64,000 nucleotides of DNA from positions 172,918,001-172,982,000 of the forward strand of contig OX597816.1 of the NCBI GenBank assembly GCA_951406725.2. Reading direction: 5' to 3'. Each line of letters opens with the position of its first letter. Position 1 is the stretch's first letter. The translations under genes and the position numbers were made by a program. The notes under the pieces are model-generated. The model saw nothing but the letters and a program-made list of their open reading frames with translations, did no database searches and was not told the DNA's origin. The DNA is from Octopus vulgaris. Lineage: Eukaryota. Positions 10,889 to 52,394 of the stretch are shown here, in pieces.

Positions 10889-11330
10889 GAGTGAGAGAGC
10901 AGTGCCTTCCATCAAAGTGACACTGGGGTAAAATATTTGAAACCCAATTTACCCATCATGACTACCCGTCTGATAAGGGTACACCAGGCACATGCATCAC
11001 AACCATATGTGCGCGACATGGTGATCCGATACCAAGATAAACAGCACATGACCTTGCAGGTGGGGCCCACTTAGAATATTCTTCTGGTCGAGTAGCCCAT
11101 CCCGCTCAAAAGGTCCCTGAATAAGGATTGTTTAAGGATGTTGAATGAACCACCCATGTTTCCAAAGGTGACTTATCCAAACCTCTAAGAATTCCTTCCA
11201 ACACATGGCTAAGATGCTCCCCCACTACTGCTGCTCATGATCAGAGATGCACATATCATCAACCACTAAAGGACATGCTCAACTGGATATGGTCAAACAA
11301 CTAACCATTAGCAGAATATTTACTGTAGCC
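10889..11330 (-). mobile_element. Family C non-coding (TAA)n-associated element, 5'-truncated
   Basis: Homologous to 21650-22211, 41910-42460 and 51841-52394. The sense 3' end ...ctctctcactc abuts (AAT)n. Confidence 0.9.
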
Positions 11331-11462
11331 CTTCTTCTTCTTCTTCTTTTTCTTCTTCTTCTTCTTCTTCTTCTTCTTCTTCTTCTTCTTCTTCTTCTTC
11401 TTCTTCTTCTTATTATTATTATTATTATTATTATTATTATTATTATTATTATTATTATTATT

Positions 11463-14400
11463 ACTTTTTTTTTCTTCTTTCAAACTTGCTTCCATTGCTT
11501 GCCGAGTGTCTTCCCGACTCCTAGGGCAAAGAAACTCATAGTATACATTGGTAGGCCATTAAACCAAACTCAATAGTTCGTTCATTTAAAAAAAATTTTT
11601 TTTTTAAGTTAAATTAAAATACATGAGCAGCAACAGTTCTCATATCGACAATGCTCTTCTCAATACGTGTGATGTACCAGTTAAGACAATCTTTTGCACT
11701 TCTTGCAGGGATGGTAAGCCAGGGATCATTCTCATATAATTTTCGGTTCCCTTCTTGATCGTTCCTAGTGCTCCTACGATCACTGGTATTGTAACCGCCT
11801 TGAGATGCCACATTTTCTCAATTTCAATGAGTAGGTCTTTATATTTTCTGAGCTTGTCAATTTCTTTCGCTGAGATATTATGATCACAGGGGATGCTCAT
11901 GTCGATCAATAAGCAAACTTTATTGTTTTGGTCTTTCACAACAATATCTGGTTTATTGGCCTTGATGGTTCGGTCTGTATGTACTGGAAAGTCCCACAGA
12001 ATGGTTACATTTTCTCCTTCAGTTACAGCCTCAGGGTGTGATTATACCACTTGTCGGCAGTTTTGATATTGTAATGCCGACTTATTAGCCAGTGTAGATA
12101 TTGGCCAACTCTGTCATGTCTTAATTTATACTCCACTGGTGCTAAGACTTAACATCCAGAGATTAGGTGGTCCACTGCTTCAATCATGTCGTTGCAGAAT
12201 CGGCATTTTGGGTCTGCTCCATTTTTCATCACATTGGCCTGGTAGTTCCGGGTTAATAGGCTTTGATCTTGAGCAGCCAGGATGAAACCTTCGCTCTCTG
12301 CTTTTAGCCCTGAGCTGCGTAGCCACTGATGGGTTTGCTTCTGGTCAACATTAGCTTGTTTGCTGCGGGCCACATATTTGCCGTGCAGAGGTTTCTCCTC
12401 CCACCTATCAGCCAATTGCTCGTGCGCTTTTTTCGTTGCCATTATTTTTACCTTCTTTACAACAATAGTTGCCGTACTTCCCTCGGGTTGTTCAGTTTGG
12501 GTATCCTGCACGAGATCAATAGCAATTTTTTTGCTTTCTTTTATGATACAATGAAACTTCTTTCGTCTCTCGTGATTTTCCACGAGCTTTAGCATCCAGT
12601 CATTCGTTATTTTGAGATATTTGGCCAGTCCAATTGTGGTTGTTTTGTAAGCTAGTTCAAATTGGATCAGGCCTCGACCTCCTTGGGCTCTGGGAAGGTA
12701 AAGGCGATCTACGTCTGCCTTTGGGTGGTGCATCCTATTACAACTCAGCAGCTTGCGTATTTTCCTATCTATATTCTTTACTTCACTCATATTCCAGTTC
12801 AACACATTGTAGCTATAAGTAACAACTGGAACTGCTAAGGAATTTATAGCTAACACCTTGTTACGTGCATTTAGTTCAGATTTCAGGACTGCACGAACTC
12901 TCCTATAACATTCCTTCCTGATATTCTCTTTCATGCTTGCATGCTGAATACCAGAGCCTTCATTTATCCCTAAATATTTGTATGTTTGTTCTTGCTCAAG
13001 CTCTCTTATGACTGTGTCAACATCTAACACGACTGAATTTGTGGTCTTCACTTTCCCTTTCTGGAAAGTGGCCTTGGCACACTTCTCAAGTCCAAACTCC
13101 ATCCCGATGTCATCGCTGAATGCTTTCACAGTGCGCAATAGGCCTTCAAGTTCATTATTGTCTTTACCATAGAGTTTTAAGTCATCCATATAAAATAGAT
13201 GGCTTATTTTTTTATTGGCAATTTTATACCCATACCCTGTTCTGTTTAATTCACTTGTAAGGGGTATTAGGGCTATGCAGAATATTAAAGGTGAAAGTGA
13301 GTCACCTTGAAAAATTCCACAGCTGATGTTTATATTTTCTGAGGCAAGTACTCCATTAGAGTGGTATAATTGGAGATTCGCATTCCACAACGACATATTG
13401 TGCTTCAGGAAGTTTGAAATCACAGAGGAAATTTTGAAGATGTCCAGCGATCTCAAGATCCATGGATGCGGTATACTGTCGAAGGCCTTTTTATAGTCAA
13501 TCCATGCGGAGTTGAGATTTCTGCGCTTGTTGTGACAGTTCTCAAGGATCATACGATTAATTAGCAGTTGATCTTTGCATCCGTAAGAGCCTCAGCGGCA
13601 CCCTTTTTGTTCAATGGGGAAAATATCGTTCTTTTCCATGAATGCATATGTTTTCTCCGCCAGGATAGATGTTAGGATTTTATACGTGGTGGATAGACAG
13701 GTTATAGGCCGACAGTTTTTTGGAAGGTTGGTTTCGTTATTCTTTGGGAGCAGGTAAGTAATACCACTTGCTAACCATTCAGGTGTTTTCTTTGGGTCTC
13801 TCATAATTCCATTGAGCAGCTGAACTAGCTTACCGTGTGTGCATGGGAGCGATGCGAGCCAGAAATTCGGCACCCTATCTTTACCGGGGGATTTCCAATT
13901 ATTGGCCTTCGTGAGTGCCTTTCTTAGGTCTGCTATTGTGATGTCTTCCCATGCTTGTTGTTGTAAATTTTGGTAGGATCCTTCAGTTTGTATAATCCAG
14001 TCTGCATTTATGTTGTAAGTCTTCTTGTCACTCCAAATCCTTTTCCAAAAGTTTTGAACTTCTTCCATGGGTTACTTTCTCCTTCCCTATTTTTAACAGA
14101 TTATTTTGCTTGTAAAACTTGTTTCTCTTCTCAAATCTTCGTATTCTTTGGGCTTTTGCTTGGACTTTTTGTTTCAGCGTTTCTTTTATTGATATCAGTT
14201 CTTCTCTTGGTGAGGATCCAAATTTTCTCTTCATCTTTCTTCCTGTTCTGGATCTTACATCATTTCCACATATTAGTTCATTTAATATTGATATTTCCCC
14301 TTTCATAAATTCAATCTCTTTTTCAATTTTACTTCTCCAGGTTTGATTTCTTCCCAGGTTTGGTTTTCTTTGTTTCTTCGGGGGCATACAGCTGGTTTCA

Positions 14401-50506: not shown

Positions 50507-51300
50507 CAGTAGTTTTATTTTTATAGCGTACTTTCACTTCACTACTGAGCGCAGCTCTGTGTGCCTTGGGTATGTGCTGTGATTTGTTGTGATGCTCTGA
50601 TGGTTATTGTATGGAAAGTGTTCTGCGTAGGATGTGTGCAGTGCCTAGTAGTGCAATTTTCTGTATGTTATATGTGTTTGTAAGTCCTGGTGTTTTTGTT
50701 ATGTATTTGTCTGAATATTTTTTTATCATGCCTAATGCACCTACTATGGTAGGAATTATTTCTGTTTTTAGATTCCACATTCTGGTTACCTCTATTTCCA
50801 GGTCTTTGTATTTTGAAAGTTTCTCAATTTTTTTTAGAGACACGTTGTAATCTGCTGGTATTGATACATCAATTAGATAGCATTTTTTTCCTTCATGATC
50901 TCTGACAACTATATCTGGTCTGTTGGCCTTAATTTCTCTATCTGTGTATATCGGCATATCCCAGAGTATGGTTGCTTTCTCGTTTTCTGTGACCTTTTCT
51001 GGTGTGTGCCTATACCATCTTTTTTCTGTTGTTATTCCATAATGTTGGTATAGCTTCCAGTGTATGTCGTGTCTGTGAATATATTCCTTCTTAGCCAGAA
51101 CTGGGCAGCCAGAGATAATATGATTTATTGTTTCTTGTCCATCTCCACATATTCTGCAGTTACTTGTAATATTTCTTTTCATTACATGTTTTTGGTAATT
51201 TCTGGTGGGGAGGCTTTGGTCTTGTGCTGCAATTAAAAATCCCTCTGCCTCTGCTTTGAGTCCTGAGCTTCTCAACCATTGCTGGGATTTTTCTTTGTCT
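50507..51300 (-). mobile_element. D3 5'-truncated copy 3 (CCHC + RLE)
   Basis: ORF 50604-51275: GLKAEAEGFLIAAQDQ..CRICG..HIISGC..RHD..ANRPDIVV..KYKDL. Confidence 0.93.
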
Positions 51301-51840
51301 ATTATTATTTTTCTTCTTCTTCTTCTTCTTCTTCTTTCTTCTTCTTCTTCTTCTTCTTCTTCTTCTTCTTCTTCTTCTTCTTCTTCTTCTTATTATTATT
51401 ATTATTATTATTATTATTATTATTATTATTATTATTATTATTATTACTATTATTATTATTATTATTATTATTATTATTAATATTGTTGTTGTTGTTTTGC
51501 TTTTTCTTATTCTTTTTCTCCTTCTTATTATTATTATTATTAGTATTATTATTATTATTAAGTTTTGGTTTTGCTTTAATTTATACTAGTTGCACCCAAG
51601 TTTCAACCACAGGTGTCAAGGAACAATAAGGTTTTGCATCTGAAGATATTAAAAGGTGAGACCAGAGCATGACAGCTCCTGATGATTAAGAGCTTGATCC
51701 ACATCAAGGTCCCTGATTCCAGTCAGTTATTTGCCATGGCCTTGTAGTGACGTTTACTTCCATTTCTCCTTAATATATTGGAGCCTTGTTTGTTTGGCTA
51801 TGATTTTTTATTTTATTTATTTTGATGATGATGATGATGA

Positions 51841-52394
51841 AATGCCCTGATGCAGTACCAGGCAGTGGCTCTCGTATCTAATCTTAACTGATTGGAAGTG
51901 ATATCATGTACATTGTTTTGTCTTGGTATAAAAGATGGGCTACAGCAAATATTCTGCTCAATACCACAGACTTGCTTGTCAGTTGTTTGACCTTAACAAG
52001 TTGAGCATGTCCCTTAGTGGTTGACGATATGTGCATTTCTGATCACGAGCAGAAGTAGTGGGGGAGCATCTTAGCCGTGTGTTGAGAGGGATTCTTAGAT
52101 GTTTGGATAATTCACCTCTGGAAACATGGGTGGTTCTTTCAACATCCTTAAACAACCCTTATTCAGGGACCTTTTGAGTGGGATGGGTTACTCGACCAGA
52201 AGAAAATTCTAACTGGGCCCCACCTGCAAGGTCATGTGCTGTTTATCTTGATATCGGATCACCATGTCGCGCACACATGGTTGTGATGCATGTGCCTGGT
52301 GTACCCTTATCAGATGGGTAGTCATGTTGGGTATACTGGACTTCGTATATTTTACCCCAGTGTCACTTTGATGGCATATACTGCTCTCTCACTC
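51841..52394 (+). mobile_element. Family C element, full length
   Basis: Preceded by (GAT)n and followed by (AAT)n. Confidence 0.92.

Follow-up and report, generated by a model that had tools for sequence, protein, structure and literature searches.

Family C, an abundant non-coding octopus element of TAA-type arrays, is probably mobilised in trans by Dong/R4 protein

How does a short element that encodes nothing come to lie in the same arrays as Dong/R4-like retrotransposons? Family C, a non-coding element of about 563 nt, is present in five copies within a 64-kb stretch of Octopus vulgaris DNA (the window), all of them located where the original prediction had placed them. The full-length copies are C2 (21650..22212, minus strand), which at 563 nt comes closest to the majority sequence among the four long copies; C4 (41909..42460, plus strand), which lies inside an (AAT)n(AAG)n array after C3; and C5 (51840..52394, plus strand), with (ATG)5 as its 5' flank and (AAT)23 as its 3' flank. 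The other two of the five are 5'-truncated. C1 (10889..11330, minus strand) begins at element position ~102, has a 20-nt deletion and lies directly downstream of the tail array of the Dong/R4-like element D1, in D1's orientation. C3 (41702..41791, plus strand) joins element positions ~41-78 to ~511-563; the internal deletion claimed for it is real, and it proves to be 5'-truncated as well. Pairwise identity among the four long copies is 90-94%.

All five copies end in CTCACTC(AAT)n, as had been claimed, and C2, C4 and C5 share the 5' start AAATGCCC, so that the predicted common start stands with its exact position moved one base further out. Direct reading of the termini revealed no terminal inverted repeats and no TG..CA or TC..CTRR ends, and C thus lacks the termini of a MITE, an LTR element or a Helitron. 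The copies are dispersed singles of strict polarity, in neither tandem nor inverted arrays. We discarded the reverse reading direction: it would make the invariant end the 5' end, where the fold is unremarkable.

The 5' junctions bear most directly on how C is inserted. Within the window, four of the five C copies (all except C3) and all six Dong/R4-like elements scored have their 5' junction on an AAT/AAG/ATG array with the same polarity as the element. Such arrays occupy 1.3% of plus-strand and 3.6% of minus-strand positions, giving a probability of ~8e-6 for four or more junctions out of five. Among 40 BLAST hits of four other repeats, none had such an array at an end, a contrast that is overstated because these ends are BLAST ends of mutually overlapping hits and an ATT array lies ~45 nt from the end of one tRNA-type SINE copy. 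Reverse transcription of a tail cannot account for an array on the 5' side, which therefore marks the target. The arrays concerned include (TAA)18(AAG)27 (11331..11463, minus strand) between the D1 3' end and the C1 5' junction, which places C1 in the tail of D1; (AAT)n (22213..22351, minus strand) at the C2 5' junction; and (AAT)15(AAG)24 (41792..41908, plus strand), which links C3 and C4. Upstream of the Dong/R4-like copy D3c lies an (AAT)n(AAG)n array like those of C1 and C4, and the 3' junction phase of C, element|AATAAT, is that of D2, D3 and D4. Element ends are masked in public-run read placement, and all flank statistics refer to the window; on that scale the TAA-type flank enrichment on which the original reading depended is present, at 4/5 junctions against a background of at most 3.6%. 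The fixed 3' end, the variable 5' truncation and a flank polarity far beyond chance together fit the proposed target-primed reverse transcription (TPRT) with strand-locked polarity.

Candidate helper families lie close by. D1 (11464..15392, minus strand) is an apparently full-length but broken Dong/R4-like element with RT, CCHC and RLE, and D2a (16515..18866, minus strand) is a 5'-truncated one with an open 710-aa RT-RLE frame. Further Dong/R4-like copies are a second D2 (48943-49978), the 5'-truncated D3c (50507..51310, minus strand) and other D3 copies (18914-19425 and 22810-23133). No RT-coding sequence other than the RLE type was found among window ORFs of at least 150 aa. According to the available text of PMC13282606, Dong-R4 makes up 92.7 Mb in O. 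vulgaris, with 51 families, 5 of them recently active; this large, recently active component counts in favour of a Dong helper for C.

Given these neighbours, a tail shared between C and a Dong element would be the usual evidence of partnership. We observed no similarity between C and the D1-D3 UTRs in 12 comparisons (the best score was equalled by 42/200 shuffles), in agreement with the original prediction for the 3' UTRs. Nor was there similarity to the D1-D5 ends, the rest of the window or 72 related loci, a comparison that takes in a minority of octopus Dong families. Neither the D1 5' UTR nor any compared 3' UTR matched C as an autonomous parent would. A descriptor of the Dong 3' stem-loop recognises 13/16 Dong UTRs, on which it was fitted, 68/800 shuffles and 0/4 C ends, and purines make up 25% of the last 20 nt of C versus 45-90% in 15 Dong ends. 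Since C has neither this stem-loop nor a purine-rich terminus, the usual shared-tail evidence is missing. The claimed partnership with a Dong-like RLE element is partly supported, by the common microsatellite target and polarity, and stays putative.

We found no coding capacity in C. No ORF longer than 67 aa occurs in six frames of the five copies, and Pfam recognised nothing in the 12 frames of C2 and C5. By tblastn, C2 positions ~155-337 align at 29 bits with the RT 'QGD' region in Dong relatives, a result reached by 0/200 shuffles for C2, 1/200 for C5 and 160/200 for C1 and C4. We treat this alignment as chance, because a profile built from 51 long relatives did not score on C and a phmmer search of 1.84 billion proteins with C translations returned no RT. 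An L2-like reading of one antisense frame likewise led to nothing.

A small-RNA head is equally absent. ARAGORN reported no tRNA in the whole window, and no Rfam family reached its gathering score, C2 giving chance-level matches only. Because C contains only A-box-like words with 2 mismatches and no B box at tRNA spacing, it has no classical SINE head; the missing B box and three T4 tracts conserved in the family argue against a Pol III SINE. With the ORF, Pfam and termini results, these searches uphold the original description of C as having no ORF, TIR or tRNA/5S/7SL-like head.

Low-power searches found no ribozyme or promoter in C. Our own HDV-like descriptor, for which there was no positive control, gave 0 strict matches in C and also 0 in D1's 5' UTR; a relaxed fit in C2 is absent from C4 and C5 and was discarded. 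An Rfam ribozyme search of 11 Dong-like loci was also empty. Inspection by eye showed no hammerhead core in proper context on either C strand, and Rfam gave no match. The sense-strand folding z is -3.6/-4.0 for C2, and -1.2, -1.7 and -0.9 for C1, C4 and C5, so that strong folding is confined to one copy. With 2/175 predicted pairs compensatory and an unfavourable covariation term, the structured RNA of the original prediction is weakly supported, although its named hairpins can be drawn.

Family C extends well beyond the window. Contigs carrying it number 69,401, 42,732, 3,140 and 68,924 in four public runs, and the ~43,000-69,000 in each of the three deep runs indicate a very abundant family; per-bin depth was used neither as copy number nor to rank parts of the element. 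The family is also present in Octopus bimaculoides and is probably in octopus repeat libraries already, as an unclassified consensus. Searches with exact C motifs came back empty from viral, metagenome and prokaryote collections, which is what an animal repeat should give. Among database ORFs that translate other C copies, all six clusters reaching the 3' region continue, at the protein level, into codons that are N/I-rich or stops, the pattern expected of (AAT)n, and in P0136, a 5'-truncated copy read from protein only, an Ile run precedes the element.

In a recurrent chimera, present in 146, 81 and 166 contigs of runs X1, X7 and X13, C positions 1-279 are followed by an A-rich end. This end weakly resembles the D1 terminus: 4/300 shuffles reach its score against seven Dong termini, and the likeness is not significant against the whole window. 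A gapped motif matching D1 was built after viewing both sequences, which voids its chance figure; the 300-shuffle test is the fairer one.

On balance, and with moderate confidence, we consider family C a non-autonomous retroposon that is likely mobilised in trans by Dong/R4 protein. It is non-coding and abundant, with a fixed 3' end on AAT, variable 5' truncation, a preferred 5' start and arrays shared with Dong-like elements. An RNA running from AAAUGCCC to CUCACUC(AAU)n would be produced, its probable source being an internal Pol II start or release from a read-through transcript. Dong protein would then nick the TTA strand of an array and prime reverse transcription at the 3' end of the C RNA. 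What it recognises there must differ from the Dong 3' stem-loop and could be the (AAU)n tail, a convergent fold or a UTR belonging to an unseen Dong family; C may be a deletion derivative of such a family. Each insertion would leave a fresh AAT tail as a target for the next, and chains such as D1-array-C1 and C3-array-C4 could arise in this way. In a more speculative version, which we judge doubtful, C is a cellular RNA parasite that has neither small-RNA head nor LINE tail. It would have hijacked a site-specific Dong/R4 protein by means of its (AAU)n end or a fold that converged, set its own 5' end by an unrecognised ribozyme or internal promoter and reached very high copy in octopus by building the very TAA arrays it enters; its 5' half would be a portable head that a sibling family has joined anew to a Dong-type tail.

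An unlikely alternative to a Dong/R4 helper is that C is a non-autonomous retroposon of an APE-type LINE (RTE, CR1/L2 or Tx1), for example a bipartite RTE derivative, and that its (AAU)n tail pairs with AAT arrays already in place. The missing Dong 3' motif speaks for such an origin, and RTE is the best-known clade for bipartite non-autonomous elements (available text of PMC5786205). In octopus RTE-2_OV the 5' UTR is ~600 nt long and the 3' end is a microsatellite (PMC9115989, in part), and in O. vulgaris recent activity is recorded for 13 families each of RTE, CR1 and L1-Tx1 (PMC13282606, in part). However, the RT coding in the window is exclusively of RLE type among ORFs of the size given above, and the 5'-side arrays and junction phase of C mirror those of Dong elements. 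Two published RTE-2_OV primers had no window match at 3 mismatches, a very partial test, and of 16 O. bimaculoides RTE insertions examined, four have a called target site, which is (AT)n or mixed in sequence and in no case a TAA array.

Microsatellites are the preferred sites of some Penelope-like elements, and C, with no LINE-like tail motif, could instead stem from a Penelope-like or other microsatellite-associated element (a pLTR remnant, a Helitron or a satellite-linked unit) that spreads without Dong protein. Despite the 30 recently active Penelope families of O. vulgaris (PMC13282606, in part), we find this quite improbable: neither a hammerhead core in proper context, by eye, nor terminal inverted repeats, TG..CA or TC..CTRR ends were seen, and the C copies are single, dispersed and strictly polar. 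Least probable is that C is a mere long LINE 3' UTR with coding sequence upstream in other copies. The 5' flank is masked in public runs, and the 24 loose ends of C contigs listed, none of them strongly parent-like, stand beside 2544 others, which leaves this reading some room. But three of the five copies begin at one base right after an array, which random 5' truncation would not give, so that C is not just a set of 5'-truncated 3' UTRs. Among related elements, the 13 whose end is readable (11 loci and D1-D3) have a 3' UTR of just 60-220 nt, and none of 17 + 6 protein matches to C translations (one of the 17, the bacterial repeat protein P0129, was discarded as chance) runs on into RT or endonuclease.

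EhLINE1 of Entamoeba histolytica is placed in the R4 clade, and its partner EhSINE1 is a close counterpart of C. In the available text of PMC2996970, EhSINE1 is 500-600 bp long, with no ORF, no identified small-RNA precursor and only weak A/B boxes, and EhLINE1 has a restriction-enzyme-like endonuclease. Unlike C, EhSINE1 has ~70 bp of 3' end in common with its LINE, 393 copies, target-site duplications and T-rich targets (same source); no such tail links C to the Dong elements compared, and C is far more abundant and occupies TAA-type arrays. The R2 SIDEs and R2/R1 hybrid SIDEs of Drosophila are non-coding and site-specific, with a defined 5' end and TPRT in trans by RLE (or R1) protein, but they consist of a 5' ribozyme and a 3' end taken from their parent and stay at low copy (PMC3414825, in part), whereas neither part of C was traced to a parent in the sequences compared and weak tests detected no ribozyme. 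Bipartite non-autonomous LINEs (RIME, NARTc, RTESINE, Vingi derivatives) are headless and non-coding, with a fixed 5' end and presumed Pol II transcription (PMC5786205, in part), as is Persaeus of the Persaeus/CR1 pair, which reaches percent-level genome shares (PMC6740152, in part). Reported parents are RTE, Ingi, Vingi, R2 and CR1, and the word 'Dong' is absent from the available texts of these two papers. Dong of Bombyx mori and octopus Dong-R4 resemble C in TAA-array context, polarity, 3' junction at AAT and 5' truncation (PMC3774820, PMC13282606 and PMC9115989, each in part). C differs from Dong in having no ORF and no 3' stem-loop of the kind found in most Dong-like UTRs, and B. mori Dong has an HDV-like ribozyme, none being found in C by the weak tests used. 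Given the EhSINE1 and R2 SIDE precedents, C is not a new system, and the original term "undescribed system" was an overstatement.

R2 needs its own 3' UTR, and RLE-type site-specific retrotransposons are usually thought to be alike in this. To our knowledge, known non-autonomous partners of RLE-type elements carry the parent tail and stay low-copy. R1, too, is described as stringent (PMC3414825, in part). If the Dong/R4 reading is true, a very abundant element that rides to the Dong target while lacking the Dong tail motif would mean relaxed template choice in an R4-clade enzyme, which bears on the use of such enzymes for RNA-templated, site-specific insertion. C also offers a short RNA in which to seek a new way of setting a 5' end. 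Should a parent Dong family be found, R4/Dong would join the short list of clades that give deletion derivatives. Mobilisation of C by Dong/R4 protein would also help to account for the density of TAA microsatellites in octopus genomes and for their unclassified SINE-like fraction.

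All five copies of family C announced in the original prediction were recovered at their places: C1 (10889-11330, minus strand), C2 (21650-22212, minus), C3 (41702-41791, plus), C4 (41909-42460, plus) and C5 (51840-52394, plus). Read on the strand where the flanking arrays spell AAT, full-length C measures 552-563 nt and runs from AAATGCCC to CTCACTC, with an identical first base in C2, C4 and C5. C1 starts at about element position 102, C3 consists of positions ~41-78 fused to ~511-563, and the four long copies share 90-94% pairwise identity. The claimed absence of an ORF was borne out, the longest frame being at most 67 aa, as was that of a terminal inverted repeat. 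No Pfam match was obtained in 12 frames of two copies, and neither a tRNA nor an Rfam family was found in C.

Translations of C match spurious database ORFs, and the source names Octopus bimaculoides for 5 of 17 looked up from one protein search and for all six in a second set of matches, indicating that C occurs in that species and, by extension, that the window is probably octopus DNA. At least half of the sampled words of C2 were present in 14 public sequencing runs (five coded organism labels). In four runs, 69,401, 42,732, 3,140 and 68,924 contigs matched C2, covering 25 of 29 bins; these are contig counts rather than copy numbers, and five copies per 64 kb point in the same direction, toward high abundance. 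Among the variable places of C listed for run X1, 105 of 147 are C>T or G>A, as expected for ageing copies. The translation of one O. bimaculoides ORF (P0139) reads through the 5' end of C into C-internal residues, suggesting a source copy in which the first ~140 nt are duplicated in tandem.

The window contains RT-CCHC-RLE elements with (TAA)n tails, labeled Dong/R4-like from their anatomy, as none of 120 relatives listed carries a family name. We observed D1 at 11464-15392, broken but apparently of full length; two copies of D2, one of which keeps an open frame of 710 aa; three copies of D3; and, from a fourth Dong-like family, a 3' UTR (51560-~51820, minus strand), which is akin to the D2 3' end and lies back to back with C5. 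A fifth, distant RLE lineage (62497-63200 and ~63330-63546, plus; 58227-58535, minus) is ~30% identical to D2 relatives; its truncated copies adjoin (CATA)n arrays, not (TAA)n, and it is possibly an R4-like family targeting a tetranucleotide. Other repeats include a ~400-bp near-perfect foldback within the TAA tail of the D3 copy D3b (~22401-22803; arms ~170 bp, spacer ~57 nt, by eye), which looks like a MITE, a 630-bp composite repeat in two copies 95% identical (37363-37991 and 47856-48485), whose beginning is tRNA-like and whose tail recurs in another SINE-like family, and a tandem repeat at 1-845 (80-bp unit, 10.6 copies, 99% matches).

In four of the five C copies, the 15 nt upstream of the 5' junction consist of an AAT/AAG/ATG array with the same polarity as the element, and the same holds for six of six D1-D3 copies; only 1.3% (plus) and 3.6% (minus) of window positions qualify (P ~8e-6). 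For four other repeats, 40 BLAST hits showed no such array at either end. As a control this has flaws: the hits overlap, a BLAST hit need not stop where the element does, and an ATT array lies ~45 nt from the end of one tRNA-type SINE copy. A copied tail cannot account for an array 5' of the element, so these arrays mark the target. C1 follows the D1 tail array immediately, and C4 that of C3; an (AAT)n(AAG)n array precedes C1, C4 and the D3 copy D3c alike, and the 3' junction element|AATAAT is common to C, D2, D3 and D4. Outside the window, where flanks were read from protein only, six protein clusters reaching the C 3' region run on into Asn/Ile runs or a stop codon (one weakly), and an Ile run precedes one 5'-truncated copy. 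Both C ends were masked in run matching, and the nucleotide flank statistics refer to the window.

C is unlike any Dong UTR of the window, as originally predicted for the 3' UTRs of D1-D3, and no similarity to C was found among 72 related loci from metagenomes. These relatives and D1-D3 have in common a 3' stem-loop (CC, short YAG(G) loop, inner hairpin, CYC, then G). A descriptor of it, fitted on the same UTRs, finds 13 of 16 UTRs, 68 of 800 shuffles and none of four C ends, and the last 20 nt are 45-90% purine in the Dong elements versus 25% in C. Thus, for the Dong families compared, C lacks the tail that defines most LINE-SINE pairs. A parent in another Dong family is possible, given that 51 Dong-R4 consensus families are counted in O. 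vulgaris (available part of PMC13282606) and that the descriptor also fails on 3 of the 16 UTRs.

At position 279 (window 21934), 146, 81 and 166 contigs in runs X1, X7 and X13, respectively, leave C for A-rich sequence, one recurrent form among 24 loose ends listed from a set with 2544 more. This sequence was not found in the window. It scores 24 against the D1 3' terminus. Of 300 shuffles compared with seven Dong termini, 4 score at least as high, and the likeness is not significant when the whole window is the reference. A database ORF, P0130, contains the same A-rich words in the opposite reading direction after a Leu-Leu pair, a context consistent with the end of an element bearing a short TAA tail. 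Our guess is a template switch that joined a Dong-type tail to the C 5' half; alternatively, another repeat may have captured that half.

Dong of B. mori self-cleaves at the 5' junction after TAA repeats (PMC3774820, in part). An HDV descriptor, used without a positive control, gave no strict fit in C or in the D1 5' UTR, and Rfam gave no match on 11 Dong-like loci; both nulls are weak. C has T4 tracts conserved in the alignment (columns 79-82, 340-343 and 518-521) and showed no B box at tRNA spacing, making Pol III transcription unlikely. We favour putative Pol II transcription, either starting internally or followed by processing of a longer read-through RNA. As to the proposed structured RNA, the C2 sense strand gives a stable predicted fold (z -3.6 and -4.0), unlike its antisense strand; C1, C4 and C5 reach only z -1.2, -1.7 and -0.9, and compensatory changes occur at 2 of 175 pairs among four close copies, so that a predicted structure is plausible at most. 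Separately, several full-length metagenomic Dong/R4-like elements start with a tRNA-like head (L005 84-168; first ~170 nt of L014, L016, L017 and L020), mostly directly after an upstream microsatellite. ARAGORN called a tRNA-Gly in L005 only, one of nine loci scanned; the elements may be R4-clade LINEs with a Pol III head, or SINEs may adjoin them.

A classical SINE was considered for C and rejected. EhLINE1 belongs to the R4 clade. Its endonuclease is restriction-enzyme-like, and EhSINE1 (500-600 bp, no small-RNA precursor known) has ~70 bp in common with it (PMC2996970, in part); C fails this shared-tail test against the Dong families compared. R2 SIDEs join the parent's ribozyme to its 3' end (PMC3414825, in part), and C cannot yet be classed as one. 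In the available portions, Kojima's list of clades that give rise to bipartite non-coding derivatives of LINEs consists of RTE, Ingi, Vingi and R2 (PMC5786205), and Persaeus adds CR1 to the source clades of non-coding LINE derivatives (PMC6740152). Neither C nor a Dong partner is described in the accessible parts of three octopus papers (PMC13282606, PMC9115989, PMC8967140) or in any paper listed by a wider literature search; this covers papers and not the repeat libraries (Repbase, Dfam, that of the 2015 genome paper) or the transcriptome supplements. As 893 recently active SINE families are unclassified (PMC13282606, same part), C may well be catalogued already without description. We consider it very probable that C works like a non-autonomous retroposon using target-primed reverse transcription at the Dong target. 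Dong/R4 protein is the likeliest machinery, with somewhat better than even confidence; if C is so copied, derivation by deletion from a Dong family not seen here and origin from an unrelated RNA are about equally likely.
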